DNA of 64,000 nucleotides. Source: an uncultured virus (IMG/VR IMGVR_UViG_3300022555_003212) (taxonomy: Duplodnaviria > Heunggongvirae > Uroviricota > Caudoviricetes). How positions within the stretch are numbered: position 1 is the stretch's first letter; the number at the start of each line of letters is the position of its first letter. Both the position numbers and the translations under genes were made by a program. Below are positions 5,404 to 63,892 of the stretch, piece by piece. Location: the IMG/VR virus record IMGVR_UViG_3300022555_003212; one strand, given 5' to 3'. Under the pieces are notes generated by a model. It was given only the letters and a program-made list of their open reading frames with translations. It was not told where the DNA came from and made no database searches.

Positions 5404-5811
5404 TTATAAATCAAATCTTGCAGTAATCAAACTTTTTTGGTATCTTAATACTTCGTCATATCTTAATCCTTGTATAGTTACTTCAATATATTTTTCTCGT
5501 ATCCTTACAGGATGATTTTTAATATCACAAATTTTTCCAGATGTCATAAAGATACCCTGAGCTGGTGACGGGTATTTTGATGGCGTGGATATTTGCGCTT
5601 TAGTCAAAGCTTCACTAATGGAATTAATATCTTCCAAATCTATAAGAAAAAATATTAGCGATATATTAATACCATCTATAGCGGTTAGTGTTCCATGCCC
5701 ACTTTCATAAGCTGAACCTTTTTCAACAGAAATTGCATACCAATGCCTACGCAAATCATAAGGAAAATGCTTTTTAAAGAGGTTTATGAATATTTCAGTT
5801 AATTCTGTCAT
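5404..5811 (-). CDS. FDL-tail protein
   Basis: ends ARFDL; TATAAATA just upstream of the ATG. Confidence 0.75.
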   Translation of the reverse strand: MTELTEIFINLFKKHFPYDLRRHWYAISVEKGSAYESGHGTLTAIDGINISLIFFLIDLEDINSISEALTKAQISTPSKYPSPAQGIFMTSGKICDIKNHPVRIREKYIEVTIQGLRYDEVLRYQKSLITARFDL

Positions 5812-5857
5812 ACTTATTTATAAGTACTCGCAGGGCTTTAATTTTTTAGGTAAATAA

Positions 5858-6043
5858 TTAGGCGAATAATTTAATACCCAACGCAACAAGGCTCACAATG
5901 CCAAACATAAAAAGTGCAGCAATTGAATATCCCACAATGGATATACCTTCGCCTACACTATTTCGTACCATTACGTCAACAACGACCATAAAGAACATAG
6001 CGCACAATTCGCAAAAGAACAAATATTTCAGGTAAGTTTTCAT
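5858..6043 (-). CDS. small membrane protein
   Basis: two hydrophobic segments. Confidence 0.6.
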   Translation of the reverse strand: MKTYLKYLFFCELCAMFFMVVVDVMVRNSVGEGISIVGYSIAALFMFGIVSLVALGIKLFA

Positions 6044-6070
6044 AGGTTTGAGGTTTTAGGTAGGTGAATA

Positions 6071-6544
6071 TTAGAAGTTAATTTTAATTTTAGTTCCATC
6101 GGTTGTTATTATGCATTTTCTATTCTGCGTTATGACAATACCAGCCTTAGTCATATTATTCGACCCCATAAAGAAGCACACCACACTTCCAATAAACACC
6201 CCGCCTGTGATAGCCATGGCTCCATATCTGGCACTCTTATTAATGTCAGCACCATTTTTATCATACACTACTGGGATAAACGCTGTCACAATGCCACATG
6301 CAAGCGAAGTTGAGAATAACACAGCCGCATTAGTAAAGTTCCGTCCAGCCCTCTGTAAATACTCGCCTTGAACATAGGATGGGTCAACCTTGATGGTGTA
6401 TTCTATTTTGGCTTTGGTGTTAACCCATTCTCCTGTCGCTGGATTATATTCTTTTGCGGTAATAATCTTTTTGGATATAGTGTCCTGTGCGTTTAAGCTG
6501 GCTGCACAAATCAGCATTGCGAAGATAAAGATTAATTTTTTCAT
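6071..6544 (-). CDS. secreted/membrane protein
   Basis: signal peptide MKKLIFIFAMLICAASLNA|Q (Gln at +1 is typical of Bacteroidota) plus two TM helices. Confidence 0.7.
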   Translation of the reverse strand: MKKLIFIFAMLICAASLNAQDTISKKIITAKEYNPATGEWVNTKAKIEYTIKVDPSYVQGEYLQRAGRNFTNAAVLFSTSLACGIVTAFIPVVYDKNGADINKSARYGAMAITGGVFIGSVVCFFMGSNNMTKAGIVITQNRKCIITTDGTKIKINF

Positions 6545-6569
6545 GTGCCTATGGTTTTAAGTTAGGGCA

Positions 6570-6604
6570 CAAATGTATAAACAATAATCGAATAAAAAAA
6601 ATTT
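6570..6604 (-). promoter_or_regulatory. host-type (Bacteroidota) promoter, T-tract + TACATTTG
   Basis: TAnnTTTG -7 box upstream of 6544. Confidence 0.65.
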
Positions 6605-6721
6605 AAAATTATTTTCTATTTAAACTAATTGCGGATGCATCTTTTATTTCAGTTATTTTCTCTGGCGATAACCCATCAATTTCGAGTGTGACATTAATGT
6701 CATCCTTTGTTATTATATGTT

Positions 6722-7015
6722 TCATATTTTTTCAATATTTAATTTATTTAACTTCTTGACCCGTTCTTCTTTTTTTAATTTTTCATCAAGAATTTGGGTG
6801 GTTTTAATTTTTACATCATCCCACCACCACAAATCAGGCTCACTCCCTAAGGTTGGACGGACAATTTCACTAATAATTGCATTGACTATTTCTTTAAGAT
6901 CAATTTCATTATTTTGAAATTGTACACATTTATCAACCATTTGATGTGCCTTCTTATCAATAAGAGATTGGTCAAATTTTAGTCTTTTCATATATTTAGA
7001 TGAATTTTTTAGCAA
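6722..7015 (-). CDS. hypothetical, RxxKLxxL tail
   Basis: ends ERVKKLNKLNIEKI. Confidence 0.7.
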   Translation of the reverse strand: MLKNSSKYMKRLKFDQSLIDKKAHQMVDKCVQFQNNEIDLKEIVNAIISEIVRPTLGSEPDLWWWDDVKIKTTQILDEKLKKEERVKKLNKLNIEKI

Positions 7016-7242
7016 TTATGATTCGAACCACAGTTGTGCTTGTATATTACATTACCATTTTCATCCAATACTCTATAATATATATCACCAACAACAATTT
7101 CAATAGTTATTTCATTATCCCCATCAAAAAAAGTTATCGATTCCAATATACCATTATTATAATTTTCCTTACATGATGTAGCTTGGATTTCCTCTGTTGT
7201 TTGACCAACAAATGTCTGCTGTCTAATTAATTTATAAATCAT
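7009..7242 (-). CDS. hypothetical protein
   Basis: overlapping operon gene. Confidence 0.6.
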   Translation of the reverse strand: MIYKLIRQQTFVGQTTEEIQATSCKENYNNGILESITFFDGDNEITIEIVVGDIYYRVLDENGNVIYKHNCGSNHNC

Positions 7243-7394
7243 TTTTCAAAATGCTTTTTTAAAATATTCTCAATAATCTTCGATCTATTCTGATCAGTTT
7301 CTTTCGAATATTTTTCAATTAGTCGTATCAGCTCAGGGTGAAGTGAAATTCCAACACTCTGTTTCTTTTCGTTATCTGGTACCCGTTTTCTCAT
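7239..7394 (-). CDS. ribbon-helix-helix (CopG-like) protein
   Basis: MRKRVP...SVGISLHPELIRLIEKY...NRSKIIENILKKHF. Confidence 0.65.
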   Translation of the reverse strand: MRKRVPDNEKKQSVGISLHPELIRLIEKYSKETDQNRSKIIENILKKHFEK

Positions 7395-7503
7395 ATATCT
7401 ATTGTATGCATATTTGTAACAAAAGTTTGAATTATTTGTTACAAATTTTAAAAATTGGAAAAAAGTCATAATTTTTCATTTATATATACAAATAAAAAAG
7501 CAT

Positions 7504-7674: not shown

Positions 7675-7676
7675 AC

Positions 7677-8499: not shown

Positions 8500-8520
8500 C
8501 TGTATCGAGTTCTGATTTAA

Positions 8521-9141: not shown

Positions 9142-9157
9142 TTTCGTCTATTATTTT

Positions 9158-10169: not shown

Positions 10170-10640
10170 ATGAAATATATTAAAAGGTTTGAAAGTATAG
10201 AATCTGATAAATTATTAATAAATAATGGTACAGTAGATCGTGTAACGTATTACAGTCAAGATGGGGTATCTATATTTAGGGAGCGTAATCAAAGATTACA
10301 AATGAATATTACTGGTGCAAATGAGGATATAATTTGCAGTATTGCCAGAATAATAAAACTGAATCTTAAAGATGTACCATTAGATATAGAATATGAAAGC
10401 AGAGGTGTAGATCATGATGTAGAGTATGTTGACTGGCTCAAGGCATTAATTATCCTCAATAAAGATTACAAGCAATTTATAGATACAGAATTGGGAAAAA
10501 AATATTTGAAAAAATTGAAAAGAATGTTTGATATTAAAGAAAAGTATTTATTTAATATCAAGAATAAAATGGAAATATTAAAAAAAGAAATGGATGTTGA
10601 AATTACCAAGGCTTTACATATTTCAAGATTCGACTTATAA
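10170..10640 (+). CDS. N-tag + FDL-tail protein
   Basis: MKYIKRFE...SRFDL. Confidence 0.8.
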   Translation: MKYIKRFESIESDKLLINNGTVDRVTYYSQDGVSIFRERNQRLQMNITGANEDIICSIARIIKLNLKDVPLDIEYESRGVDHDVEYVDWLKALIILNKDYKQFIDTELGKKYLKKLKRMFDIKEKYLFNIKNKMEILKKEMDVEITKALHISRFDL

Positions 10641-10642
10641 AT

Positions 10643-11017
10643 ATGATAACACAATTTAAATTATTTGAATTTGATGTTGATAAACAATATTTCTTTAAAT
10701 TTAAAGAAATTGAAGATTATTTTAATGGAAGTGTGGTAGATATAGAAAATTTCTTTGTTCATTTACAAGGAAGTGCAATAGTAATAATTCATGCAGATAA
10801 AGGTAGGATTCAACGTGGCTTGATGATTTTTAAACATATAGTATTGCTCAATCCAAAAACAAATTCATCTCCATATCTTATCGATACAGATACACTAAAG
10901 AATATAACGGCATCACCAGAAGATACTGTTAAAGTTTATGATGAAGTCCCAGACGAATGTAGGAAAGTATTAAAAGAAATCGAAAAGAAACGAACAGAAA
11001 ATAGATTTGACTTATAA
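10643..11017 (+). CDS. N-tag + FDL-tail protein
   Basis: MITQFKLFE...NRFDL. Confidence 0.8.
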   Translation: MITQFKLFEFDVDKQYFFKFKEIEDYFNGSVVDIENFFVHLQGSAIVIIHADKGRIQRGLMIFKHIVLLNPKTNSSPYLIDTDTLKNITASPEDTVKVYDEVPDECRKVLKEIEKKRTENRFDL

Positions 11018-11295
11018 TCCTTCAATTTTCTTTAATTTTTCCCGTCTCAAGAGTACAACTAAATCTTTTAATACTTTGGTTTCGATAAAAATCTTTGTGC
11101 TTCTTGGTTCTTTCGGTATACAATTACTACAATGATAAACAATTTCAAAATGTGTAGGCGAATGGCATCTTCTTCACTATTATTTATTTTATTTAATTTC
11201 TTCTTCCTAAGATCATTATTGTCGAATATTAATGGCATTGTTTTTAATTTTTCATAATCTTTATCTGTTAAAGTCTTTTTGTTAAATACAAAATC
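11012..11295 (-). pseudogene. chimeric remnant of the 3' ends of genes 12836..13258 and 12164..12418
   Basis: 11168-11263 identical to 12846-12941; about 11020-11167 is a diverged copy of about 12175-12322. Confidence 0.8.
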
Positions 11296-11359
11296 AAAAG
11301 TGCATAGAAAATCAATTTGATCTGTAAAATTTGATTTGTAAAAATAATATATAGTTAAA

Positions 11360-30292: not shown

Positions 30293-30385
30293 ATCGATTG
30301 AATTAGAGTACAAATATACAACACTTGTACGAGAAAAAAAAATCTTAACGTTATTTTTTTTGAAATATTTTTATATATACAAGAT

Positions 30386-48015: not shown

Positions 48016-48070
48016 ATGATTACACTATTCGAAGCCGAAAGGAAAAATATTTAACCAATTTGATTTATGA
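48016..48070 (+). pseudogene. empty tag-only cassette
   Basis: MITLFEAERK joined out of frame to KIFNQFDL-stop. Confidence 0.7.
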
Positions 48071-48360
48071 AATACTTAAAAGAATTCGAATCACTTAATC
48101 CATCTGATATTCCAACCATGGGGGACTATGTTCTATATAAAAGATACCGTGATAATGATTATGGTATAATAAGAATATTACGTGTTGACTGGGTTAAGGA
48201 AGAAATACATTTCAAAAAAATTGGATTACGAGAATATGAGGAAAAAATGCCATTTAGTGCATTCGAAGAAAATATTGAAAAAATTTATGTCGGTAGAATT
48301 TTAGACCGAGCTAATGAAATTTTAAAAAAAATACAAGCACAAAACAGATTTGACCTATGA
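48067..48360 (+). CDS. N-tag + FDL-tail protein
   Basis: MKYLKEFE...NRFDL. Confidence 0.8.
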   Translation: MKYLKEFESLNPSDIPTMGDYVLYKRYRDNDYGIIRILRVDWVKEEIHFKKIGLREYEEKMPFSAFEENIEKIYVGRILDRANEILKKIQAQNRFDL

Positions 48361-48785
48361 TAATACAATTCAAATCATTTGAAAGTAGATATGACGATAT
48401 AATTATGGGTCATACTGTAGAAATGGTTGATATATGGGAAGTTCTTAATGAAGATGAATATACCAATATGGTAATTCATTCAGATTTTGATAATTCTGAT
48501 AAAATAGCAACTGTTGGTGACAAAATAAAATTCACATCAAATTTTGGTGAGACTTGCTATGGTAAAATTGAGCGATCAACATTAGCTGTAATAACGCCAA
48601 AATCTAATGTTCTTTGGAAAGTGACAATTAATTCAATGCCAATAGCCGATGAATGGGTTCCAAAAGGCGCACGAGAATTCATAGTACAAAATGTTTCTGT
48701 ACAAATATACACTGAAAATCCATTCTTGAAGACATTACTGAAAAGAATTGAAGTTCATAAAAAAACATCAAGATTCGATCTATGA
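48357..48785 (+). CDS. N-tag + FDL-tail protein
   Basis: MIIQFKSFE...SRFDL. Confidence 0.8.
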   Translation: MIIQFKSFESRYDDIIMGHTVEMVDIWEVLNEDEYTNMVIHSDFDNSDKIATVGDKIKFTSNFGETCYGKIERSTLAVITPKSNVLWKVTINSMPIADEWVPKGAREFIVQNVSVQIYTENPFLKTLLKRIEVHKKTSRFDL

Positions 48786-49804: not shown

Positions 49805-50134
49805 TTATAAATCAAATCTTTCTGAAGCCTTACGAGTGTGGTAATCTTTTAAACTTTGATCTGTTGTAAATAATCCAACACCATCCCTAAACTCAAACGT
49901 GTGCTTATCTTTAATGCTTTTGTAGACTCGTGCAAGACTTCCATCATTATCTTCTACATGATATTCGGTGAATACACCACGAGGTCCAGGAAAATCATTA
50001 TGATGTAATTTATATAAATTTCCATGAGTAAAACTATAATCATTAACCAAGCTGATAAATTTCTCAGTCCCATACGGTAAAATACAAAGTAAATATTCAT
50101 CAAGAGCTTTATAACTTTCGAATTTATATATCAT
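49805..50134 (-). CDS. N-tag + FDL-tail protein
   Basis: MIYKFE...ERFDL. Confidence 0.8.
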   Translation of the reverse strand: MIYKFESYKALDEYLLCILPYGTEKFISLVNDYSFTHGNLYKLHHNDFPGPRGVFTEYHVEDNDGSLARVYKSIKDKHTFEFRDGVGLFTTDQSLKDYHTRKASERFDL

Positions 50135-50475
50135 AGGTCAAATGTTCTTCCTTTTAGATATGCAACCAGCGTTCTTTTTTCTTTTGCCCAAATTTTAATA
50201 TCATTAATTGTAACCTTTAAATACGTGTGTGGTGGTTTTACATCAAAGTCGTGATCAAATTGATATTGATATCTACAAAATTCTTGATCATCTGGGTAAT
50301 TAATAAAGTATAATGGTTTGCTTGTCGAATATGTGATATGATCTATTACACCAATATGATTCTTTAAGAAAGTTTTTACTGGTTCCTCATCCCCGCCAAC
50401 GACAGCAATAGTCGGTTCAATTAAGACGTAGCAACCAATCTTAGGGGTTTTACTTAGAGCTTCGAATGTCATCAT
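50131..50475 (-). CDS. N-tag + FDL-tail protein
   Basis: MMTFE...RTFDL. Confidence 0.8.
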   Translation of the reverse strand: MMTFEALSKTPKIGCYVLIEPTIAVVGGDEEPVKTFLKNHIGVIDHITYSTSKPLYFINYPDDQEFCRYQYQFDHDFDVKPPHTYLKVTINDIKIWAKEKRTLVAYLKGRTFDL

Positions 50476-51095: not shown

Positions 51096-51443
51096 ATGAT
51101 AACACAATTTAAGGTATTTGAATCAATAGATATTCCACAAGAGGATGATTATGTTTATTTTGTCATACCAGACTTGAAATATCCAGACGGAACACATAAA
51201 AGAGATAGTGTTTCAGGATTTGGTAAGATTAGGCATTATATTCCAAAATCAAATTGGCAATATTTTGTCGATGATGTAAATCATATACCAGATGTTAAAC
51301 CAATATTAACAGACTACACTTTTGATGATGGATTAAATAATACAGAACATGGGGAGTATGTTAAAAAAGATGAAATAAAATATTGGGGTAAAACATTAAA
51401 GGATGTTCAGAGAAAAATGTCAGAAGATAGATTTGATTTATGA
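51096..51443 (+). CDS. N-tag + FDL-tail protein
   Basis: MITQFKVFE...DRFDL. Confidence 0.8.
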   Translation: MITQFKVFESIDIPQEDDYVYFVIPDLKYPDGTHKRDSVSGFGKIRHYIPKSNWQYFVDDVNHIPDVKPILTDYTFDDGLNNTEHGEYVKKDEIKYWGKTLKDVQRKMSEDRFDL

Positions 51444-51790
51444 TAACACAATTTAAAATATTTGAATCACTTAATTCTGGTGAGATAGAAGCTGGCGATT
51501 ATGCTATATGTGAATGCCTTAATAAGGGATTTGAACCATTAAATTTATTTTTGAAAGGTGCAATAGGTAGAATTGCGCACGTTGAAGAAGAGTGGAAAAA
51601 TTATAAATATAAGGTAATATACGATGAGGTACCATATTTTGTTGCTGGAATATTTTTTCAAATAGAACGAGCACTTGATTCATCATATATAAAATATGTT
51701 AGATATTTTAAATTGGATGAAATTAAATTTTACTCAAATAATAAACAGGATTTGATTACTCACCTTAAAGCAACTCAATTTGATCTATGA
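51440..51790 (+). CDS. N-tag + FDL-tail protein
   Basis: MITQFKIFE...TQFDL. Confidence 0.8.
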   Translation: MITQFKIFESLNSGEIEAGDYAICECLNKGFEPLNLFLKGAIGRIAHVEEEWKNYKYKVIYDEVPYFVAGIFFQIERALDSSYIKYVRYFKLDEIKFYSNNKQDLITHLKATQFDL

Positions 51791-52116
51791 TAACTAAATT
51801 CAACTTATTCGAAAAGTATTCCGCAATTATAGATAATAATATATATCATGAGGATGATTATATTATATACTATACATCATTTAAAGATTTGAGGATAATT
51901 AAAATTTCTGTAATAACAACAGATTTCGATGATATCCACGCATTAGTATGTCGTATAATTAAAACAACTGAGGGTGATGATTATATCGGTATGAAAGTTG
52001 CACTTGAACAAAATTACATTAAAGATAATATTAGACCCATAATTATAACTGATGATTTGGCTAAAGCTGAAGCCGAATATGATAAAGAAATGACTAAAAA
52101 AAGATTTGATTTATAA
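51787..52116 (+). CDS. N-tag + FDL-tail protein
   Basis: MITKFNLFE...KRFDL. Confidence 0.8.
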   Translation: MITKFNLFEKYSAIIDNNIYHEDDYIIYYTSFKDLRIIKISVITTDFDDIHALVCRIIKTTEGDDYIGMKVALEQNYIKDNIRPIIITDDLAKAEAEYDKEMTKKRFDL

Positions 52117-52674: not shown

Positions 52675-53019
52675 ATGATAACAATATTTGAAACATATAA
52701 GTCTAAACCAAGAGTTGGTGATTATGTAATCTGCCAAGATTCACTTAGCCAAACATATTGTGATCTTAATTATTATTTATTAAGTCATATTGGACAAATT
52801 ATTACATGGGAAACTTCTGGGGATACCCTTGATATTAATGTTGGTAGTCAAGTATATATGGTTTCTTATGAAAATGTTCCAGATGATGTTAGTCACTTTT
52901 TTAAAATGGATGATGATGGTATGATAGTAAGATCATTCTGGCGTAAAGAAATGATCTATTGGTCACCAGTTAAAAAAGATGTTGAGCGGTATTTAACTCA
53001 ACAAAGATTTGATTTGTAA
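52675..53019 (+). CDS. N-tag + FDL-tail protein
   Basis: MITIFE...QRFDL. Confidence 0.8.
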   Translation: MITIFETYKSKPRVGDYVICQDSLSQTYCDLNYYLLSHIGQIITWETSGDTLDINVGSQVYMVSYENVPDDVSHFFKMDDDGMIVRSFWRKEMIYWSPVKKDVERYLTQQRFDL

Positions 53020-53074: not shown

Positions 53075-53365
53075 ATGATAACGAAATTACATTTATTTGA
53101 AGCAATCAACCAAACATTAATGCCAGAAAAAGATGATTATGTTATCTGTGATGTTGTTGACCCATCTATTCCAGATACAACTAATGTGATTGGTAAAATT
53201 ATTAGTATTTCTGACTCTGGGATTGAACCTGTTTTTAAAGTAAAATTTGATGAATGGGAAGAAGATAGAAACACGTGGCCCGTTCTTGAACCAGAGATTA
53301 AAATGTGGTGTAAAAATCGTAAAGAACTTAAAAAAATATTAACACAACGTAGATTTGACCTATGA
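53075..53365 (+). CDS. N-tag + FDL-tail protein
   Basis: MITKLHLFE...RRFDL. Confidence 0.8.
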   Translation: MITKLHLFEAINQTLMPEKDDYVICDVVDPSIPDTTNVIGKIISISDSGIEPVFKVKFDEWEEDRNTWPVLEPEIKMWCKNRKELKKILTQRRFDL

Positions 53366-53715
53366 TAACAAAATTTAAAATATTTGAAAAAGTACACTGT
53401 GAAATACAGCTTGAAGGTGAATTCCCAAAAATTGGAGATTTTGTAATTTGTAGGGAATCAATTAATGCCCTAATTGATGAATTTTTATCTACTCATGTCG
53501 GTGAAATTGTTGGCACTGGTGGGCTATTACCATACACTGTATCATTCGGGTTAATAGAAAATCTTCCAGACTATATGAAATCATACTTTAACGGTAATCT
53601 GATTAAAGTCGAGGGACTCGCTGTAAGAGATTTTGAATCATGGGATATTGTCAATTGGAGCACACATAAAAAGGATTTGGAGTCCCATATCACATCAAAA
53701 AGATTTGATTTATGA
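53362..53715 (+). CDS. N-tag + FDL-tail protein
   Basis: MITKFKIFE...KRFDL. Confidence 0.8.
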   Translation: MITKFKIFEKVHCEIQLEGEFPKIGDFVICRESINALIDEFLSTHVGEIVGTGGLLPYTVSFGLIENLPDYMKSYFNGNLIKVEGLAVRDFESWDIVNWSTHKKDLESHITSKRFDL

Positions 53716-54026
53716 AATATATTAAAGCATTTGAATTTGTTAAGGTTGTGCGGCAGTCTGATGAGCGTCCTGAGGAAAAGAATTATATTATAGCACGAGC
53801 ACCTGTTGGAGGTGATTCTTCAATAGACTATTATCTAAGAACAACAATCGGTCAAATTATTGAAGTTCATCCTGACTCAGGCACCAGAGAATTTGATTAT
53901 AAAGTTAGGTATGATAAGCCGCCATACAATAATGTACGGTGGGTTTCTTACCCAGAAATTTTATTTTGGTCATCAAATAAAAAAGAACTTGAATCACAAT
54001 TAAAAGCATCAAGATTTGACTTATGA
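53712..54026 (+). CDS. N-tag + FDL-tail protein
   Basis: MKYIKAFE...SRFDL. Confidence 0.8.
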   Translation: MKYIKAFEFVKVVRQSDERPEEKNYIIARAPVGGDSSIDYYLRTTIGQIIEVHPDSGTREFDYKVRYDKPPYNNVRWVSYPEILFWSSNKKELESQLKASRFDL

Positions 54027-54575
54027 TAATTCAATTCAAATTATTTGAAAATGCAACAGTTAATGTGGGTGATTACATAATCAATTGGTTTATAATCCCA
54101 GTAATAAACAAGATAATCACCAACCTTGAGACTATTCATAAACGAAACAACTTGAGCATTCCGTTTATCCAAATCTTCTTTATTGTGAGGTACTCCCCAC
54201 CCGTCATCGTATAATACAATACAAAAAGGAAATCAATTCGATTTATGAAATATTTGAAATATTTTGAAATTAACAATATATCTGATATAGATTTATGCAT
54301 ACAACTTTTTCAACATATGCACTCCATCCATTAAAATCGTCTGCACCATCAGGATAAAGGTTTGAAAGTTCTTTAAAATAAAAAACTGGATAATCTCCAT
54401 CATGATCAGAGTGGATACGTTTAATTTTTGTCAACTTAATTAAATGCGGTACTGTGCGAAACGTGATACTATAACAAGAGATATCGAAGAAGCTTGGCTT
54501 GTATACAATGATTTGCTACCTAAACTTCAGAAGATACGTCAGCAAATGCTGACCCAAAACAAATTCGATTTATGA
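54023..54575 (+). pseudogene. two scrambled tag-family genes with inverted interiors
   Basis: tags intact on + (MIIQFKLFE, GNQFDL, MKYLKYFE, NKFDL); 54077-54214 and 54293-54474 read as coding on -. Confidence 0.8.
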
Positions 54576-54934
54576 TAACAGATTTCAAAATATTTGAGAA
54601 TAAAAATATAGAATTTGAAGTTCTATGTGTTCGAGAACCATTAGTAAATAAAGGTTTTGATTTCGAAGTTGGTAACAAATACAAATTCAGTACAAATTTG
54701 GGACGTGCCCTTAGAAACTATAAACCTCACCTAAAAAAAGAGCACAAAGGAAATATAACAGATGGTAAAGGTAATCAAATAGTATCATTTATCGTACAAG
54801 ATTCTATTGATGATGTGCAAGAATTTATTCTTAGCGGTGGTGATGAAAGAAATCCAAATTCATTTTTATTCACAAAAGATCAGTCATTATTGGATTATCA
54901 AAAAAGATGTAAATTTAAAAGATTCGATCTGTAA
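54572..54934 (+). CDS. N-tag + FDL-tail protein
   Basis: MITDFKIFE...KRFDL. Confidence 0.8.
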   Translation: MITDFKIFENKNIEFEVLCVREPLVNKGFDFEVGNKYKFSTNLGRALRNYKPHLKKEHKGNITDGKGNQIVSFIVQDSIDDVQEFILSGGDERNPNSFLFTKDQSLLDYQKRCKFKRFDL

Positions 54935-54985: not shown

Positions 54986-55474
54986 ATGAAATATCTTAAA
55001 TCTTACGAAAATAGATTTGATGACAATTATGAGATAAGATCAGATGGTATGTTTATACAAAAGCCTAAGATCGAACCAATAATAGATATTACTGGTTCAA
55101 TGAAAACCAACAATAGTAAGTGGGCGTTTCTGTGCATTATTTCAAAAGATACAGATAAATTCAGAGTTGGAAAACTGTATTTATTTTCACCAAATCCAAC
55201 CACAGAATCACTTGGGGTGATAGAAGATAATATCGGTAGAAACCATACAGCCAAAGTATATTCTGATACTGAGAATAAAACAAAAACTAAAGAATGTATA
55301 TTAGATGATTATGTTGATGATTTTTTGTTTACTGCCGATAAGTCAATAAGAGAATATATTTTAAGAAATAAAATAAATGGAATGGAAGAATTTAATAAGC
55401 TTTCTAAAATGTCTAAGGCTGAAAGAAATGATCTAATTAAAAAGAATAAAATGATAGATAGATTTGATTTATGA
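54986..55474 (+). CDS. N-tag + FDL-tail protein
   Basis: MKYLKSYE...DRFDL. Confidence 0.8.
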   Translation: MKYLKSYENRFDDNYEIRSDGMFIQKPKIEPIIDITGSMKTNNSKWAFLCIISKDTDKFRVGKLYLFSPNPTTESLGVIEDNIGRNHTAKVYSDTENKTKTKECILDDYVDDFLFTADKSIREYILRNKINGMEEFNKLSKMSKAERNDLIKKNKMIDRFDL

Positions 55475-56084: not shown

Positions 56085-56567
56085 ATGATAACCAATTTCA
56101 AAATATTTGAAGATAACACTGAAGAACCACTTTATCTTTTTACTATATTTGATTTGGAAGAAGTAGTTAGAACTATTCAAACTATTCAAACTAATAAATT
56201 TAATAAGATTTCGATGTTATTTGATTCAACACTGGGTATACTAAAAAGTCTTATTGGTTCAAAGATTAAAATCCCAGCATATTATGATAAGTTTTTTTTA
56301 ATATCCGTAAGATTAAAAACCCCTGAAGAATATCAATCTTCTACTGGTACATATATCTTTTCATTTATTGAAGATACTGGAGGCTATTCACAGTCTTTAA
56401 TAGATTGGAAACATGGTGATAATAGTGCTGAAAGTGATTGTCCAAATAATAGCTATAATGAAATAATTGAAGTGTTTTCCACATCTAAACCAGAGCCAAA
56501 TGAAATATTAGAAATTACTACAAAAAGGATTAAACAAAGACGCACAGAAAAAAAATTCGATTTATGA
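56085..56567 (+). CDS. N-tag + FDL-tail protein
   Basis: MITNFKIFE...KKFDL. Confidence 0.8.
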   Translation: MITNFKIFEDNTEEPLYLFTIFDLEEVVRTIQTIQTNKFNKISMLFDSTLGILKSLIGSKIKIPAYYDKFFLISVRLKTPEEYQSSTGTYIFSFIEDTGGYSQSLIDWKHGDNSAESDCPNNSYNEIIEVFSTSKPEPNEILEITTKRIKQRRTEKKFDL

Positions 56568-57613: not shown

Positions 57614-57961
57614 TTATAAATCAAATCTTTTTTCTGTGTTGAGTTTTGCTAATTGCTCTTGGTATACATTTACAGCTTTCCACCCAATACTACTTATGAA
57701 AAGTATATTTGTATGCTCATGAAACCATTCTGGTGAACAGTTGTATATCATGCCTCCAGTTCCACTTGACCATGATGCTGATATATACTCTAAATCAACA
57801 GTACCTTCAGATTTTGTGTTTCTTACAAGCATTAGGCAAATTCCTACTCCAGTGGCATTCAGTGCTGTGCCTTTCATTTGAAGTACAATTTTTTCACCAC
57901 CATGAATCTCACGACCATTTATCTTTATAATTTTTTCAAATAATTGGAACTTGGTTGTCAT
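57614..57961 (-). CDS. N-tag + FDL-tail protein
   Basis: MTTKFQLFE...KRFDL. Confidence 0.8.
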   Translation of the reverse strand: MTTKFQLFEKIIKINGREIHGGEKIVLQMKGTALNATGVGICLMLVRNTKSEGTVDLEYISASWSSGTGGMIYNCSPEWFHEHTNILFISSIGWKAVNVYQEQLAKLNTEKRFDL

Positions 57962-58326
57962 AGATCAAATCTGCTTTGTGCTATTTTAGCTTCGAGTTCT
58001 TTTCTGGATTTAGAACAAAAAATAATTTCATTTGGGCTAACCCACCGTGTAAACCTATATCCATTATCTATTTCTTCAAACCATTCCATAAAAACCCACT
58101 CGTTTGATGTATTCAAATTATCAGGATAATCAATTTGAAATCTATCAACTTGAATCTTACCTTTTCGTTTAATTGGTTCTGCCTGTAATGCAATATTGCC
58201 AACATTTACCATAAGAGTTTTATTTAGTTTACTAAAATTACTTCCACCGACTGGGGCAATTTGTATTATCACATAATCCCCAACCTCAGGGGTTATATTT
58301 TCGAACAATTTAAATTTGATTATCAT
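57958..58326 (-). CDS. N-tag + FDL-tail protein
   Basis: MIIKFKLFE...SRFDL. Confidence 0.8.
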   Translation of the reverse strand: MIIKFKLFENITPEVGDYVIIQIAPVGGSNFSKLNKTLMVNVGNIALQAEPIKRKGKIQVDRFQIDYPDNLNTSNEWVFMEWFEEIDNGYRFTRWVSPNEIIFCSKSRKELEAKIAQSRFDL

Positions 58327-58364: not shown

Positions 58365-58697
58365 ATGATCACACAATTTAATTTATTCGAAACTGTATAT
58401 CCAGCATTTACCGAGCAAGTGCTTTGTGTTATGTCATTATTTATCGTGGATGAGTGTGAATTAAGATACACTGAAGGCACTCAATACACCTCAGATGTAT
58501 ATTATCATAATGGAACAAAATATAGAATGATAATCGATGATGGTGGTAAAAAAATACCAATGCATGAACATCAAAAATTAAATAATTTATTTTATGTTAA
58601 ATCATCTGCAACACATCAATACATTGCATACTTTACAAAAGATAAAAGTATGGAAGAATATAAAAAAAGAATATCACAAGAACGATTCGATTTATGA
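58365..58697 (+). CDS. N-tag + FDL-tail protein
   Basis: MITQFNLFE...ERFDL. Confidence 0.8.
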   Translation: MITQFNLFETVYPAFTEQVLCVMSLFIVDECELRYTEGTQYTSDVYYHNGTKYRMIIDDGGKKIPMHEHQKLNNLFYVKSSATHQYIAYFTKDKSMEEYKKRISQERFDL

Positions 58698-59038
58698 GAT
58701 ATTTAAAAGCATTTGAAGACAACGACAAACCAAGAATTTCAGGCTTTGGGCCTAATGATTTTCTTTGTACATATTCTAACTGCGCTGAATTTATAAAAGG
58801 TAAAATATATACTGGAATATCGTGGCGTAGAGATAATAATGATATCGAAGGAAAGATTGAAGGAGAAAATAAATCATGGGTTGAAGTCCAAATGTCAAAC
58901 AAAGAAAATGGTACATTTGAATATAAGTTTGTAATATCTTCAGCTAAGCCGCCAATTTGGAAAAATGCATACTTTACTCAGGATATTAGTGTCGAAGAGT
59001 TTAGAGCTAAAAAAAGAATGGCAAGATTCGATCTATGA
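58694..59038 (+). CDS. N-tag + FDL-tail protein
   Basis: MRYLKAFE...ARFDL. Confidence 0.8.
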   Translation: MRYLKAFEDNDKPRISGFGPNDFLCTYSNCAEFIKGKIYTGISWRRDNNDIEGKIEGENKSWVEVQMSNKENGTFEYKFVISSAKPPIWKNAYFTQDISVEEFRAKKRMARFDL

Positions 59039-59406
59039 AATATTTAATCAAATTTGAATCGCATTCACTGGATATTATAGAAAATGATATGACTGGTAGT
59101 AATCCTAAAAAGTTTGGTGATTTAAATGTTAAATTAAATGATTATATTGTTATAACTTGGGAAGACTCAAGTTCTGGTTGTTATATTCTAAAGGTTATTG
59201 ATATTATTGCGGCTAATCATAATATTGATTATATCAGATATAGAGTACAAATAGTGTTACCTAATGAAGAAGATAGAGACATGGAAAAAATGCTTTATGC
59301 AGATCAAGAATCAATTAATTGGTATGTTCTTTATCTTGGACAAGATTATGATAAAGCATTAAATTCTTTTAATAGACGAACTACTGAAATAAAATTCGAT
59401 TTATAA
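59035..59406 (+). CDS. N-tag + FDL-tail protein
   Basis: MKYLIKFE...IKFDL. Confidence 0.8.
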   Translation: MKYLIKFESHSLDIIENDMTGSNPKKFGDLNVKLNDYIVITWEDSSSGCYILKVIDIIAANHNIDYIRYRVQIVLPNEEDRDMEKMLYADQESINWYVLYLGQDYDKALNSFNRRTTEIKFDL

Positions 59407-59856: not shown

Positions 59857-59945
59857 ACTCTAAATATTTTTCATCTATATATTTGAATTACCTGGGCTTC
59901 TTTTTAAGTACTCATTTTCTATGCTTGAAATTAATATATAGATGG

Positions 59946-60299
59946 ATGATAACAGAATTTAGACTATTTGAAACATTAAATCCGTCAACTCCTACAGTTG
60001 GTGATTATGTTATTATGAAAAAAGAATTTGTCGATATTTTAGATAATTTCACTCGTAATAATATTGGTCAATTTATTGATATAGAACAAAATGCACCTAA
60101 TGATTTTAGATATATAGTTGAGTTTGATACAGAAATACCAAAAGAAATTTCAGGGTGGTTTTATGCTCATGGCGGAAAAAAAGAAAATCGCAGAAAATAT
60201 AGGGTGACGGACTTTTCAGATAGCCAGCCATTTGAATACTGGTCGGAAGATAAGAAGGAATTAGAAGCAGTTTTAAAAGGAAAACAATTTGATTTATGA
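59946..60299 (+). CDS. N-tag + FDL-tail protein
   Basis: MITEFRLFE...KQFDL. Confidence 0.8.
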   Translation: MITEFRLFETLNPSTPTVGDYVIMKKEFVDILDNFTRNNIGQFIDIEQNAPNDFRYIVEFDTEIPKEISGWFYAHGGKKENRRKYRVTDFSDSQPFEYWSEDKKELEAVLKGKQFDL

Positions 60300-60568
60300 T
60301 AACAGATTTTAAGTTATTTGAAAATATAGATGATTACGCTACTTGGAAGGAAGGAGATGAGGTTTATTGCATAAATGATAAAGATTGGGATAATGGATTA
60401 GTTGATGAACTCACACTGGGGAATAAATATAAAATACAATCAGCCGCTTATTTAAACCCAAATTATGAAATTTGGACTGTTAATATAGATAACGCTGTGT
60501 TTAGAGCAAATAGGTTTACTAAAAATACTCAGCATCCAGTACTATTACAAAAAAGATTTGATTTATGA
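60296..60568 (+). CDS. N-tag + SH3-like + FDL-tail protein
   Basis: MITDFKLFE..GDEVYC..KRFDL; paralog of 30772. Confidence 0.8.
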   Translation: MITDFKLFENIDDYATWKEGDEVYCINDKDWDNGLVDELTLGNKYKIQSAAYLNPNYEIWTVNIDNAVFRANRFTKNTQHPVLLQKRFDL

Positions 60569-60894
60569 TAACAGATTTTAAAATTTTTGAGAAACAAGAT
60601 GATGAGTATGTTACATGCGTCAAATCAGATGGGCGTAGAAGCTGGATAACTGTTGGTAAACAATATAAATTACTTCGGCACATGAAAAAAAGTCAAATAG
60701 GCGAAGATTATGAGGTGATTCGAGTTCGAGGTGATAGTGGTAGTTCATTTGAAGTAAGAAGTATATCAGACGGAAGATTAAAACCACCACCCTATGTTTC
60801 ATATTATTGTTATCCATACGATGATGTTTTATTTTCAAATGAAACACCTGAGCAATACAATAAAAGAATGACAGAAACAAGATTTGACCTATGA
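60565..60894 (+). CDS. N-tag + FDL-tail protein
   Basis: MITDFKIFE...TRFDL. Confidence 0.8.
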   Translation: MITDFKIFEKQDDEYVTCVKSDGRRSWITVGKQYKLLRHMKKSQIGEDYEVIRVRGDSGSSFEVRSISDGRLKPPPYVSYYCYPYDDVLFSNETPEQYNKRMTETRFDL

Positions 60895-61208
60895 AATATA
60901 TTAAGCAATTTGAAACAGTAACAGATTCAAAATATTTATTATGTGTTTTGGGGGACGAATCCAGTATGGAATCTTTCAAGTATGGTAAAAAATATAAAAT
61001 CGAAAAATATGGTGTTGCATATGTTACAGTGTATGATGATTGGAATAATCAGCGTAATATTTATAAAACTTCTCAATTGAGTGATATTGCCACAATGGAC
61101 GAATTAAAAAATTATGAATATTTTTATTCTGCTAATTCGATATTCACAACAGATAAATCAATAGAAGATTATGAAAAAAGAAAGGTACAAGCCAGATTTG
61201 ATCTATGA
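60891..61208 (+). CDS. N-tag + FDL-tail protein
   Basis: MKYIKQFE...ARFDL. Confidence 0.8.
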   Translation: MKYIKQFETVTDSKYLLCVLGDESSMESFKYGKKYKIEKYGVAYVTVYDDWNNQRNIYKTSQLSDIATMDELKNYEYFYSANSIFTTDKSIEDYEKRKVQARFDL

Positions 61209-61552
61209 TAACTGAGTTTAAAATGTTTGAGGTTAATAGTAGTGAGCCACAAATAAACGATTATGGGATTGCAAATATTGATAATACTGGTTCACCAGAA
61301 TATTTAAAGGAATTTATTAAAAATAGCATATGCCAAATAATTAATGTAAAAGAAGGTAAAGATTCATTTACGAATTTTCCTTATGTTGTTAAATATTTTA
61401 AAATTCCGACAGATATTCTATATGCATTCGAATCTGCTAATAGAACAAAAAATACAGGTCTAAGGTGGCTTAAATTAGATGATCTTAAATATTGGTCTCC
61501 AAATAAAAAAGATATGGAAAAAATACTAATACAAAAAAGATTTGATTTATGA
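61205..61552 (+). CDS. N-tag + FDL-tail protein
   Basis: MITEFKMFE...KRFDL. Confidence 0.8.
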   Translation: MITEFKMFEVNSSEPQINDYGIANIDNTGSPEYLKEFIKNSICQIINVKEGKDSFTNFPYVVKYFKIPTDILYAFESANRTKNTGLRWLKLDDLKYWSPNKKDMEKILIQKRFDL

Positions 61553-61941
61553 AATATATTAAAACATTTGAATCTATCAATCTAAATTCAATTAAAACTG
61601 ATATGCTTTATACAATAACTCAATTTGGGTCAGATGAGGTTGCTGTATGCCAATTATCGTTAATTGATGACGAATATTCTTATAATAGATCGTTATCATG
61701 GCTTGGTTGGTATCATGATGTAGAAGACACAAATAGAATTTTAGATATGAATGTTGGAGATTCCATTGAGGTTGGAAGCTCATCAGTAGAAATAATTACT
61801 GCAATAAAATACGATTCAGAGCTGCCAATAGAAACATCAGGTGGTTTGAATTGGGGTACCAACCCAAAGGAAGAGATAGCTACACCTGAAGTGATAGCGA
61901 AATACAACAGAAAACGTTTGCAAAAAAGATTCGATCTATAA
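61549..61941 (+). CDS. N-tag + FDL-tail protein
   Basis: MKYIKTFE...KRFDL. Confidence 0.8.
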   Translation: MKYIKTFESINLNSIKTDMLYTITQFGSDEVAVCQLSLIDDEYSYNRSLSWLGWYHDVEDTNRILDMNVGDSIEVGSSSVEIITAIKYDSELPIETSGGLNWGTNPKEEIATPEVIAKYNRKRLQKRFDL

Positions 61942-62478
61942 CTTCTTACCAATCTTATCCAATAATGTCAATGGTATCAGCACCATTAAATCTTTTCTAC
62001 CATCTTTTTCACGCTGATAAAGCTTATAAAGATTCTTAACTGGGTCAATATGACCATTTTCTTTTACAATATATGTACAATAATTTAAAAACACTTTTTT
62101 TACAACCTCTTCCAGCAATTCTGTTCTTTTAACCAGTGTGTATTCATCACCCCTATCAAATGCCATATAATCTGCTTCCCCAAACATCCAGCCTTCGTGT
62201 CCAGTTATTCCAACAAATTCTATCCAAGTATAATCTTTTGACAATGGTTCGGATTTATTCACTCTTTTTTCACCTTTAACTTCAACTTTTATAGTTTTTC
62301 CTGATGAATTAGTAACCTTAAAATCAAAATGTTCATAAATGTTTTGGCGGTCACTTGAATCAATCACATTTAAGCCTTTAGATTCAGCATAAGTTCTGAA
62401 TTTTTCTTCTACTTCTTTACCATACTTTTTATCTTTTGCATAAATCATACATATTAGATTGTTTTTATGTATATACAT
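61936..62478 (-). CDS. PD-(D/E)xK nuclease-like protein
   Basis: GKEVE..HFDF...VEVKG..WIEF..GWMFGEADY; start uncertain. Confidence 0.6.
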   Translation of the reverse strand: MYIHKNNLICMIYAKDKKYGKEVEEKFRTYAESKGLNVIDSSDRQNIYEHFDFKVTNSSGKTIKVEVKGEKRVNKSEPLSKDYTWIEFVGITGHEGWMFGEADYMAFDRGDEYTLVKRTELLEEVVKKVFLNYCTYIVKENGHIDPVKNLYKLYQREKDGRKDLMVLIPLTLLDKIGKKL

Positions 62479-62521
62479 AGTTAGATATGATAAATAAGTT
62501 TTCGTTTTAAATATATACTGT

Positions 62522-62878
62522 ATGATCAAAATATTTGAAGATTTTGTTTTATATAAACTTGATTTAAAAAAAGGTGATTATGTTGTCACCTACAGGGAAA
62601 AATTTTTGGATGCTTTATTCTTAAGAATGATTGACGTGGATACTAAGCACGGCAATTCTTTAGGCGATCATCAATATCACTGGGACATAATTGATTCTGT
62701 TGGGTGGGAAAAGAACCCTGATCTTATGAAGGGTAGAACACGTTGGATGTTTTTGCCAAACACCGAGACTGAAACACTATTATACTCTGGATCGATCTAT
62801 GGTAAAGCTCAGGATGCATTTGATCAAGCAAAATTAACTATACAAAGACTGGCAAGTACGAGGAGGTTTGACTTATGA
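62522..62878 (+). CDS. N-tag + FDL-tail protein
   Basis: MIKIFE...RRFDL. Confidence 0.8.
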   Translation: MIKIFEDFVLYKLDLKKGDYVVTYREKFLDALFLRMIDVDTKHGNSLGDHQYHWDIIDSVGWEKNPDLMKGRTRWMFLPNTETETLLYSGSIYGKAQDAFDQAKLTIQRLASTRRFDL

Positions 62879-63225
62879 TAACTAATTTCAAACTATTTGA
62901 AACCAATTTGGTTCATACCATCGTTAAAGATAAATTTCTCTGTGTTAAATCTGATGCCCCCGAATTTACGGCTGGTAAAATTTATGATTGCTATGAAGAA
63001 AAATCCAATTTTATACTAATCGTAAATGATCATGGTCGAGAAGAAAAAATAATTGAGAATCATTGGTTGTTCAATAAAAAACATAATACAATTTCAACTC
63101 ACCACTATTCATACATGAAGCAAACATCATCAGTTACAGCAAATTTTTTGTATGCCTATTTTATGAAGAATAAAACGTTAGAAGAATATGAAAAAATGCA
63201 AAGAGAAAAAAGATTTGATTTATAA
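62875..63225 (+). CDS. N-tag + FDL-tail protein
   Basis: MITNFKLFE...KRFDL. Confidence 0.8.
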   Translation: MITNFKLFETNLVHTIVKDKFLCVKSDAPEFTAGKIYDCYEEKSNFILIVNDHGREEKIIENHWLFNKKHNTISTHHYSYMKQTSSVTANFLYAYFMKNKTLEEYEKMQREKRFDL

Positions 63226-63241
63226 AAAATAATAACTAATT

Positions 63242-63444
63242 ATGAAATACTTAAGTCGTATTAATGAAAATACAACAATAAAGAAGGACCTTAAACAACG
63301 TTCAGAATATATAACTGTTGAGGTTATATCTGATTCTTTATACTTTTTGCCAACTTTAAAATGGGGGTGCGCTTTTTTATCATGTTTATCATTTCTAACA
63401 CACAATATTAAATCTTCTTCTTTTAATGTATCAAATGTTTTCAT
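63242..63444. pseudogene. two convergent 5' gene halves joined together
   Basis: + MKYLSRINE... and - MKTFDTLKEEDLILC..KVGKKYK meet near 63324-63341. Confidence 0.5.
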
Positions 63445-63500
63445 ACATTCTAATTTTCAACAAATATACAAACAACTATTCAAATAAAAAAATCAAACAA

Positions 63501-63533
63501 ATTTTTTTTTCTCATATAATAGTTGTACATTTG
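63501..63533 (+). promoter_or_regulatory. host-type promoter, T-tract + TACATTTG
   Basis: TAnnTTTG at 63526-63533; divergent copy at 63461-63468. Confidence 0.65.
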
Positions 63534-63550
63534 TACTTTAATTCAACTAT

Positions 63551-63892
63551 ATGGTAGCCAAAGGAGAATATCTGATCATTAAACCAACTAACCGCTGGGA
63601 AACAAATCCAGATACAAAACCGCCACGACTTATTCGTATTGAATCAGGCCCTATATTAGATATGGGTATTAATAATGGTGAACCTGTTGAAGTTACTAAC
63701 CCACTTGGAATAAAGCATGCACTTGCAGACAGAAACATTTGGGGTGGATCGTGTGCTTTATATTTTGACCCATTCGGTAGGTACTGGTCGGGTAATGGAA
63801 ATGATTATGAAATACTTTGGAGAGGATTCGATCTTGATGAAGCAAACAGGAATTTGATTTCAATTGTTAATGGTAATAGATTCGACTTATGA
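63551..63892 (+). CDS. FDL-tail protein, no N-tag
   Basis: ends NRFDL. Confidence 0.75.
   Translation: MVAKGEYLIIKPTNRWETNPDTKPPRLIRIESGPILDMGINNGEPVEVTNPLGIKHALADRNIWGGSCALYFDPFGRYWSGNGNDYEILWRGFDLDEANRNLISIVNGNRFDL

Follow-up and report, generated by a model that had tools for sequence, protein, structure and literature searches.

A 64-kb window of viral DNA (IMG/VR record IMGVR_UViG_3300022555_003212, an uncultured member of the Caudoviricetes; "the window" is this whole stretch, with 30.8% GC, from a contig of 182,757 bp) encodes 49 small proteins that end in FDL or, once, in FEL directly before the stop codon, and most of these proteins also begin with a shared short motif. Because both ends lie outside the predicted fold and the bodies between them include non-homologous ones, we consider it probable that the two ends are portable terminal docking signals carried by a library of binding modules.

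The C-terminal tag is far more frequent than composition would predict. Among 335 six-frame open reading frames (ORFs) of at least 40 aa, 48 end in FDL and one, at 29984-30313 on the minus strand, in FEL; the runner-up C-terminal 3-mer occurs only twice. In a greedy gene map of the window (137 genes, 95.6% covered), 0.08 F[DE]L ends are expected from amino-acid composition, against the 49 observed. A first-pass annotation of this DNA had described the recurring xFDL terminus, its single FEL variant, its span from 5404 to 63892, and its arrays on both strands at 28.7–33.8, 43.9–45.6, and 48–63.9 kb. All of this recurs here, and the comparison with chance that it proposed makes the terminus stronger than it had stated; its count of 48 becomes 49 (48 xFDL and one RFEL) with the inclusion of a 43-aa ORF at 54444-54575. 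Tagged ORFs range from 43 to 269 aa and represent about a third of the genes in the window, and 17–36% of genes across the window and a related contig of 330,208 bp (G001). A stop codon directly follows 53 of the 98 F[DE]L triplets in six-frame translation, and no [RKQ]FDL occurs internally in any of the 137 gene products. The four terminal hits beyond the 49 are short remnants (11286-11327, 11321-11341, 48020-48070, and 54189-54248). Position -4 is Arg in 38 tags, Gln in five, Lys in five, and Thr in one, and weaker preferences extend upstream to about -19 (hydrophobic residues at -12, -8, and -19; Lys at -10 and -14).

A second signal, absent from the first-pass annotation, is found at the opposite end. 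Most tagged proteins start with MITxFKxFE or MKY[IL]KxFE, or more generally M-(I-T-x or K-[YH])-hydrophobic-K-x-[FY]-E. A single fixed pattern for this N-motif matches 34 of 49 tagged and 6 of 88 untagged ORFs (Fisher p = 1.4e-14), and the 15 tagged ORFs that fail it include the near-misses MKHLFAFE, MKYLIKFE, and MIKIFEDF. The two signals are separable, because the ORF at 25951..26457 carries the N-motif without the C-tag. The same combination recurs in locus L041, from a related contig, where three ORFs inside a tagged array (9322-9708, 10593-11228, and 11228-11572) keep the N-motif and have other C-terminal ends, which shows that loss or replacement of the C-tag is possible. Several proteins, conversely, carry the C-tag without the N-motif, two of them with membrane-like N-terminal segments (29408-29971 and 29984-30313).

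The bodies between these ends are diverse. BLASTP at 1e-3 recovers a family A of 11 tagged ORFs and one untagged fragment, a family B of 10, one pair, and 26 singletons among the tagged ORFs of the window. None of the 49 reaches a curated Pfam cut-off (sub-threshold rows at E ≤ 0.01, to DUF2326 and RloB, appear in two) or matches PHROGs at E ≤ 1e-4. Two AlphaFold models of family A (mean predicted local distance difference test, pLDDT, of 82 and 84) show an SH3-like barrel with added helices. In both, the first 15–19 residues are coil at a pLDDT of about 50–57, as opposed to >90 in the body, and the C-terminus is a helix followed by two to three residues of coil, which places the tag outside the fold. 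Foldseek recovers nothing in the PDB for a family-A model at E ≤ 0.001; the top rows, at E 0.25–1, are PsaE, DUF4176, Tudor, and ribosomal SH3-like barrels. PsaE and DUF4176 are also its structural neighbors in the ESM Atlas, where neighbors are labeled "hypothetical protein" and assigned to viruses in 100% of cases, all Uroviricota. A complex prediction for two copies of a family-A protein, run without controls, gave no verdict (score 0.00). Other folds appear in G001, where Pfam was run on 99 of 104 pattern-tagged ORFs (the five crossing piece boundaries were skipped): ankyrin repeats occur in 11 and leucine-rich repeats (LRR) in two, all with both terminal motifs. An apparent MgtC body in G001 proved to be a false positive of the pattern, the protein ending in GFDV. 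As modeled and annotated, then, three or more unrelated folds carry the same two end-pieces, which do not belong to the fold itself.

Relatives are numerous, although easily missed: a word-indexed homolog search recovers only eight for family A and five for family B, mostly from the same phage, whereas an exhaustive profile search with family A against 1.84 billion representatives yields 2489 hits with E ≤ 0.001 and 1276 with E ≤ 1e-10. The best 152 profile matches end in YNL (87), YNI (19), FDL (18), FNL (10), FNI (9), FGL (3), YNV (2), or otherwise (4), and start with MIT (69), MKY (39), MKH (21), or MII (9), among others. Ten relative clusters that were looked up are nameless in every source, and no match was found among 50,697 records of isolated phages; the family is known only from uncultured viruses, of which several or more are huge phages, and what defines it is the pair of short terminal peptides rather than the body. 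Related loci were gathered from IMG/VR with an alignment of closer relatives; they number 42, with 20–28% GC and on contigs of up to 330 and 501 kb. CheckV estimates these two contigs at 46% and 70% completeness, and the genomes are therefore near 700 kb. By gene content the relatives are huge tailed phages: G001 carries T4-type replication genes (gp32, a UvsW N-terminal domain (UvsW_N), a split PolB, PhoH, and topoisomerase II) together with an anti-Thoeris Tad4 domain. An origin among nucleocytoplasmic large DNA viruses, considered for the ankyrin, collagen, and Hsp70 genes, is ruled out by gp32, UvsW, PhoH, Tad4, and the Uroviricota-only neighbors; the search for capsid genes of those viruses had no positive control. 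Locus L001, retrieved from IMG/VR by exact DNA search with one junction string, was rejected as unrelated (48% GC, one chance FDL end).

Each of these genomes uses its own flavor of the tag, which varies between genomes as a unit and whose general form is [KR]-[FY]-[ND]-[LI]-COOH after an alpha-helix. G001 uses KFNL (47), KFNI (44), KYNI (5), and KYNL (4), together 100 of 597 ORFs or 17% of genes. In locus L031, 16 of 66 ORFs end in FNI and 10 in FNL; L009 has six tagged ORFs with YNL, and L026 four with FGL. Locus L042, on the 501-kb contig (G003), has KYNII or KYNIL, which exceed the other flavors by one residue, and the position of the carboxylate is therefore not fixed across the clade. 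Among 433 unique tagged proteins, Asn at -2 occurs with Lys at -4 in 349 of 358, with Phe or Tyr at -3 and Leu or Ile at -1; Asp or Glu at -2 occurs with Arg at -4 in 47 of 66, Phe at -3 in 65 of 66, and Leu at -1 in 65 of 66; and Gly at -2 is accompanied by Lys, Phe, and Leu in all nine cases. The genome-specific flavors, and the covariation of K/N with R/D, would fit a co-evolving partner. The N-motif is the same across all tag classes of these 433 proteins. Binding of the two ends to each other would shift the N-motif with the tag flavor; no such shift is seen, and this possibility was rejected.

Codon usage bears on whether the conserved entity is peptide or nucleic acid. Phe is encoded in the 49 tags by TTT (31) and TTC (18), the acidic residue by GAT (35), GAC (13), and GAA (1), and Leu by TTA (29), CTA (14), and others (6). 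TTC is enriched relative to the bodies (37% vs. 21%, p = 0.008), as are GAC (27% vs. 13%, p = 0.009) and, in the G001 tag, AAC for Asn (51 of 100 vs. 14.5%, p = 8e-18). In both the window and G001, codons for the invariant residues show more third-position variation than do codons in the bodies of the same genes; variation in the N-motif codons roughly equals that in the bodies. Enrichment of C-ending codons is the opposite of what a DNA motif would leave and would fit selection for accurate decoding. The codons indicate that selection at the protein level maintains both terminal peptides, as the first-pass annotation had supposed for the tag from its synonymous variation.

The gene junctions nevertheless invite a different explanation, in which the junction serves termination–reinitiation coupling or cassette recombination, or the nascent tetrapeptide tunes termination. 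Thirty tagged genes stop at TGA, 29 of these as NTA-TGA; in 26 of the thirty, the stop shares a 4-nt overlap with the start codon (ATG) of the following called gene, which is itself tagged in 23 cases, such that the ATGA coupling is, as previously noted, built into the tag. TAG stops occur in none of the 49 tagged genes vs. 13 of 88 others in the window, and in one of the 104 pattern-tagged ORFs of G001, where 95 of 100 tags have NTA as their final codon, even before TAA. Tag and N-motif, further, meet at a junction that recurs as a repeat about 40 nt long. However, the NTA last codons and the avoidance of TAG are probably a consequence of the frequent ATGA coupling, and the tag is kept in the 19 of 49 genes that stop at TAA and have unrelated sequence downstream. 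The variability at the third position in codons for F, D, and N, the covariation of K/N with R/D at the amino-acid level, a bias toward AGA at -4 that is unchanged before TAA stops (15 of 16 Arg codons), and the translation of untagged genes in the same arrays likewise argue against a nucleic-acid or translation signal, which we regard as very unlikely.

It is also conceivable that the tagged proteins are an ordinary, fast-evolving paralog family with one ancestor and no common partner, the ends being merely its best-conserved structural elements, such as caps or a clasp. Both ends are common to 34 of the 49; an iterative profile built with the last five residues cut comes to include 26 proteins, of which 22 carry the tag; and profile–profile comparison of trimmed bodies gives weak matches among families A and B and an untagged small family (hhalign E 0.0055, 0.005, and 0.00065). 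A single FDL clade within family A, moreover, is not rejected, and much of the window may be one diverged SH3-like group. The first-pass statement that this is not one paralog family was thus too strong for the window alone, but gains from the ankyrin and LRR bodies of G001, which differ from the SH3-like family A; no single common fold ending in RFDL accounts for both. The appearance of the same ends on different folds, their placement outside the fold at low confidence in AlphaFold models, the invariance of the last four residues against body identities of 16–37% within family A, the fact that flavor follows genome rather than body family, and the enrichment of C-ending codons at invariant residues all count against this explanation, which seems to us quite unlikely.

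Two body families are common to this genome (RFDL) and G001 (KFN[LI]), and each carries the flavor of its own genome: family A, and the pair 32316-32771 and G001 97850-98236 (35% identity over 147 aa). Arg at -4 is encoded by AGA in 34 of 38 tags vs. 56% in the bodies (p = 1e-5), and all -4 codons except two CGA lie one step from AAA, which fits K-to-R changes occurring gene by gene after the paralogs diverged. Trees of trimmed family-A bodies distribute the FDL rows over nine groups, with 12–17 changes. Co-evolution of the tag with a partner appears likely on these sequence patterns.

How might such signals operate? Both terminal peptides would be address signals. The N-motif may act like the capsid-targeting sequence of T4 and load the proteins into the prohead, from which they would enter the host together with the DNA; the C-tag would be a second docking key for one partner, co-evolving with it in each phage lineage, and the cargo a library of binders against host proteins, for takeover or anti-defense. 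Virion loading through the N-motif is a possibility that we place first among the explanations but hold tentatively, by analogy. In T4, capsid targeting needs no more than the first 10 residues, with residues 4 and 7 involved in targeting and 8 and 10 in processing (PMC9026906, PMC3012670), and Alt is processed at both ends (PMC9026906). The T4 leaders (NC_000866) read MKTYQEFIAE in IPII and IPIII and MKTFKEF... in IPI, and resemble the N-motif in beginning at Met1 and in having an aromatic-[KQ]-x-Phe core with a Glu after it. The T4 core [FY]-[KQ]-E-F lies at positions 4–7, the corresponding hydrophobic/aromatic-K-x-[FY] at 4/5 to 7/8; this is a resemblance, not proof of homology. The T4 internal proteins (IPI, IPII, IPIII, and Alt) are, like the tagged proteins, small, very diverse, encoded at variable loci, and joined only by a common short N-terminal leader, and relatives of this phage also share with T4 the replication genes gp32, UvsW_N, PolB, and PhoH. 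Unlike the tagged proteins, however, the T4 internal proteins lack an invariant C-terminal tetrapeptide (the ends of IPI, IPII, and IPIII were read) and number only a handful, compared to about 100 or more members per genome here. A looser parallel exists in phage 121Q, of the Rak2-like/Asteriusvirus jumbo phages, where five adjacent RCC1-like genes have their first 12 residues in common, exactly or almost so. These, too, are diverged binding-type proteins with an invariant terminal peptide, but at the N-terminus only, on large propellers of 370–397 aa without a C-terminal tag, and in another phage group; the 121Q 12-mer was rejected as a relative of the N-motif, having no sequence likeness to it.

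Several observations weigh against this proposal. The resemblance to the T4 leader covers about four residues, and the T4 cleavage rule [LI]-x-E is satisfied in only 24 of 46 Asp-class and 114 of 323 Asn-class N-motifs (about 35–52%), Glu coming after the aromatic residue in 41 of 46 and 274 of 323, respectively. As virion cargo, 17–36% of genes would be far above any known phage. The two tagged proteins with membrane-like segments and no N-motif (29408-29971 and 29984-30313) imply that the C-tag must also work outside a capsid route. In five related records (1.39 Mb in total, CheckV completeness 14–70%), Peptidase_S77 (PF03420), Gp23 (PF07068), Portal_T4 (PF07230), Terminase_6N, and Terminase_6C were each found in none, and the T4 head proteins gp21, gp23, and gp20 are without recovered homologs there; the Peptidase_S77 search does recover gp21 in T4 as a positive control. 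Parallel switching of tags rests on the two shared body families and the codon argument, since an approximately unbiased (AU) test on 70 of 151 family-A rows (all 22 FDL, three FGL, and 45 random Asn-type) does not reject a single FDL clade (p = 0.446). Finally, no partner was identified, whether virion part, PDZ, protease, or clamp. The first-pass reading of the tag as a docking signal therefore gains from a peptide-level tag outside the fold on unlike bodies and from genome-specific flavors, and loses from the lack of a partner among these results; its suggestion of a Bacteroidota host received no support in this analysis.

An alternative route would keep the proteins in the infected cell, where the C-tag may dock each module and its bound target on one hub (such as an AAA+ protease or unfoldase) or mark the protein for timed destruction, the N-motif being a second contact. 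Docking peptides and C-degrons usually consist of a hydrophobic-x-hydrophobic stretch at a free C-terminus, preceded by a helix; ClpX adaptor tails, ssrA-type tags, and class II PDZ ligands are likewise short and portable and end in a free carboxylate. We know of no sequence match between the tag and any of these peptides. Binder scaffolds as bodies (ankyrin, LRR, and SH3-like), one flavor per genome with K/N-R/D covariation, as would be seen with a co-evolving receptor, and the membrane-anchored tagged proteins without N-motif all favor a hub, as does a parallel with the poxvirus ankyrin proteins, a large multigene family described as carrying a C-terminal ligase-docking box (PMC6232478). The poxvirus proteins differ in belonging to eukaryotic viruses, in addressing ubiquitin ligases, and in using a helical box of 30–50 residues rather than a tetrapeptide. 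Those boxes, F-box-like (PRANC) or Cullin-2-docking, plug a variable binder into one host machine. On the other hand, no receptor was found: the tag fits the class II PDZ ligand pattern (F/Y at -3, L/I at -1), yet PDZ_2 was found in none of the five related records, and among 80 large G001 proteins scanned the sole protease is an M3 oligopeptidase. The longer tag of G003 also leaves the carboxylate position unfixed, and the N-motif, with its likeness to a capsid-targeting sequence, would go unexplained. We consider a hub or degron role doubtful overall. A related reading, in which the C-terminal tetrapeptide would be a lock-and-key plug for a single hub that co-evolves with it in each phage lineage (for example, a protease, an unfoldase, or the ejection machinery) and the at least 100 ankyrin, LRR, and SH3-like proteins per genome a library of substrate adaptors dragging host proteins to it, we think unlikely.

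Docking to the sliding clamp or replisome is a further option, with the tag as a clamp-binding peptide like the polymerase tails of the T4 family or bacterial QL[SD]LF. A C-terminus of the form [QKR]-hydrophobic-[DN]-hydrophobic(-hydrophobic) presumably resembles such motifs, and QFDL in 5 of 49 tags and the fifth, hydrophobic residue in G003 agree with it. The C-terminal piece of the G001 PolB, however, ends in ...LNSIFQF, unlike the KFN[LI] of the G001 tags, and at least 100 competing clamp ligands per genome are hard to rationalize. This option appears highly improbable.

The arrays of tagged genes share a promoter-like box, TTTTT[AT]ATATATA, that ends 5–8 nt before the ATG of array head genes (Table 1), which leaves no room for a leader or a Shine-Dalgarno site. 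It precedes 11 tagged genes (ten called starts, and position 59946, the likely start of ORF 59883-60299) and two untagged ones, and the same box is found at array heads in G001. The 9-mer T[AT]ATATATA occurs 27 times in the window vs. about 18 in shuffles; its position, not its count, stands out. The QFDL-stop remnant at 54189-54248 lies just downstream of the untagged fragment 54023..54214, in another frame, and this fragment is probably a broken family member.

Other genes of the window are summarized here as neighbors of the tagged arrays. Thirteen small untagged proteins form a second family with an SH3-like hairpin, most starting like M-K-I-G-D-K-V-K-C and bearing a C-proximal basic motif of their own, R-[KR]-x-K-L-x-K-[LI], which might represent a further terminal signal of this phage. 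Paralogous Peptidase_C39-like cysteine peptidases at 27921-28436(+) and 33794-34399(+) flank the 28.7–33.8 kb array; they were rejected as partners of the tag, Peptidase_C39_2 occurring in none of the five related records. An R2K-clade ATP-grasp protein (39802-40569(-); PF14243, E 1.8e-15) has relatives 49–60% identical in other viral contigs (L002-L004), whose 15–21 kb contain no enriched C-terminal 3-mer. ATP-grasp enzymes of this kind attach amino acids to the carboxylates of proteins, and this protein is a possible candidate for a modifier of free C-termini. A protein of 1983 aa (14394-20345(-)) combines two glycosyltransferase, two methyltransferase, and one PIG-L deacetylase domain, its N-terminal 415 residues being 48% identical to a Microcystis phage gene. 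Free-standing homing endonuclease genes are present at 7677-8471(+) (LAGLIDADG) and, inside the large tagged array, at 59401-59856(-) (GIY-YIG).

Table 1. Positions in the window of tagged ORFs, remnants, promoter-like boxes, and the second small family
Feature	Position	Strand	Length (aa)	C-terminal end	Remarks
Tagged ORF	5404..5811	-	135	RFDL	without N-motif
Tagged ORF	10170..10640	+	156	RFDL	N-terminus MKYIKRFE; promoter-like box 7 nt upstream
Tagged ORF	10643..11017	+	124	RFDL	N-terminus MITQFKLFE
Tagged ORF	21844..22311	+	155	QFDL	N-terminus MITLFEDY
Tagged ORF	22306..22803	-	165	KFDL	near-miss N-motif MKHLFAFE
Tagged ORF	22823..23227	+	134	RFDL (TTG TGA)	N-terminus MITLFEDY
Tagged ORF	28690..28977	-	95	RFDL	without N-motif
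Tagged ORF	28974..29405	-	143	KFDL	without N-motif
Tagged ORF	29408..29971	-	187	RFDL	N-terminal hydrophobic membrane-like segment; without N-motif
Tagged ORF	29984..30313	-	109	RFEL (sole)	hydrophobic segment; without N-motif
Tagged ORF	30386..30775	+	129	RFDL	head of + strand array; promoter-like box 7 nt upstream
Tagged ORF	30772..31077	+	101	RFDL	MKYIKTFE; family B
Tagged ORF	31074..31532	+	152	QFDL	MITLFKLFE
Tagged ORF	31529..31942	+	137	RFDL	MIIKFKLFE
Tagged ORF	32316..32771	+	151	RFDL	likely start 32328 (MKYLKKFE); 35% identical G001 relative ends KFNI
Tagged ORF	32768..33268	+	166	QFDL	MKYLKFYE
Tagged ORF	33265..33777	+	170	RFDL	partial N-motif MRYLK
Tagged ORF	43863..44396	+	177	RFDL	without N-motif
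Tagged ORF	44393..45202	+	269 (longest)	RFDL	MKYLSTYKIFE; BLASTP pair with 45192..45650
Tagged ORF	45192..45650	+	152	RFDL	
Tagged ORF	48067..48360	+	97	RFDL	MKYLKEFE; family A
Tagged ORF	48357..48785	+	142	RFDL	MIIQFKSFE
Tagged ORF	49805..50134	-	109	RFDL	family B
Tagged ORF	50131..50475	-	114	TFDL (sole)	family A
Tagged ORF	51096..51443	+	115	RFDL	family A; array head with promoter-like box
Tagged ORF	51440..51790	+	116	QFDL	family A
Tagged ORF	51787..52116	+	109	RFDL	MITKFNLFE
Tagged ORF	52675..53019	+	114	RFDL	family A
Tagged ORF	53075..53365	+	96	RFDL	family A; promoter-like box 6 nt upstream
Tagged ORF	53362..53715	+	117	RFDL	family A; AlphaFold model 1: SH3-like barrel, ends outside fold
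Tagged ORF	53712..54026	+	104	RFDL	family A
Tagged ORF	54444..54575	+	43 (shortest)	KFDL	
Tagged ORF	54572..54934	+	120	RFDL	family B
Tagged ORF	54986..55474	+	162	RFDL	MKYLKSYE; promoter-like box 6 nt upstream
Tagged ORF	56085..56567	+	160	KFDL	MITNFKIFE; promoter-like box 5 nt upstream
Tagged ORF	57614..57961	-	115	RFDL	MTTKFQLFE
Tagged ORF	57958..58326	-	122	RFDL	family A; promoter-like box 5 nt upstream
Tagged ORF	58365..58697	+	110	RFDL	family B; promoter-like box 5 nt upstream
Tagged ORF	58694..59038	+	114	RFDL	family B
Tagged ORF	59035..59406	+	123	KFDL	family B
Tagged ORF	59883..60299	+		QFDL	family A; likely true start 59946 (MITEFRLFE), directly past promoter-like box
Tagged ORF	60296..60568	+	90	RFDL	family B
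Tagged ORF	60565..60894	+	109	RFDL	family B
Tagged ORF	60891..61208	+	105	RFDL	family B
Tagged ORF	61205..61552	+	115	RFDL	family A; AlphaFold model 2, 146-row alignment
Tagged ORF	61549..61941	+	130	RFDL	MKYIKTFE
Tagged ORF	62522..62878	+	118	RFDL	near-miss N-motif MIKIFEDF
Tagged ORF	62875..63225	+	116	RFDL	family B
Tagged ORF	63551..63892	+	113	RFDL	without N-motif
Untagged fragment	54023..54214	+	63		N-motif MIIQFKLFE and N-half of family A
Short remnant	48020..48070	+		NQFDL-stop	
Two short remnants	11286..11341	+		QFDL-stop and KFDL-stop	
Untagged ORF	25951..26457	+	168		N-motif MIMKFSIFE, without C-tag
Promoter-like box (ends)	10163, 22815, 30379, 51089, 53069, 54980, 56080, 58360, 59940	+			
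Promoter-like box (ends)	22810, 58331	-			
Second small family	13233-13493, 13481-13771, 25285-25575, 35517-35801, 40538-40792, 40779-41018, 42180-42422, 43255-43524, 45645-45908	-			
Second small family	28402-28695, 36990-37322, 46209-46493, 46483-46818	+			

The first-pass annotation knew of no described system with this tag, and a published description was not found here either: a search for papers on the motif strings, or on huge-phage ankyrin or multigene families with conserved ends, returned nothing relevant, supplements not being covered. One huge-phage preprint that uses the words "conserved C-terminal" is about substrates of sortase B. T4 already provides the principle that diverse phage proteins can have a terminal address in common. 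What appears to be new, as far as this search reached, is the pairing of two tags, of which the C-terminal one is an invariant tetrapeptide specific to each genome, the occurrence of this pair on ankyrin, LRR, and SH3-like modules, and a tagged share of 17–36% of genes.

If the two ends are indeed address signals, that share of the genes of these huge phages would represent one functional class, small binders sent to the same place, and would offer a handle on a large part of the unannotated genes of huge phages. The tag itself (four residues at the C-terminus, eight to nine at the N-terminus) would be a minimal, portable means of loading or docking foreign proteins, and the flavor series RFDL, KFN[LI], KYN[LI], KFGL, and KYNI[IL] could reveal the receptor by covariation across complete genomes. 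The design of a variable binder plus a constant plug, as seen in eukaryotic viruses, would then also exist in phages; and should the tagged proteins prove to be a library of adaptors, they would constitute a prokaryotic-virus counterpart of the poxvirus ankyrin/F-box families, with a portable tag of four residues.

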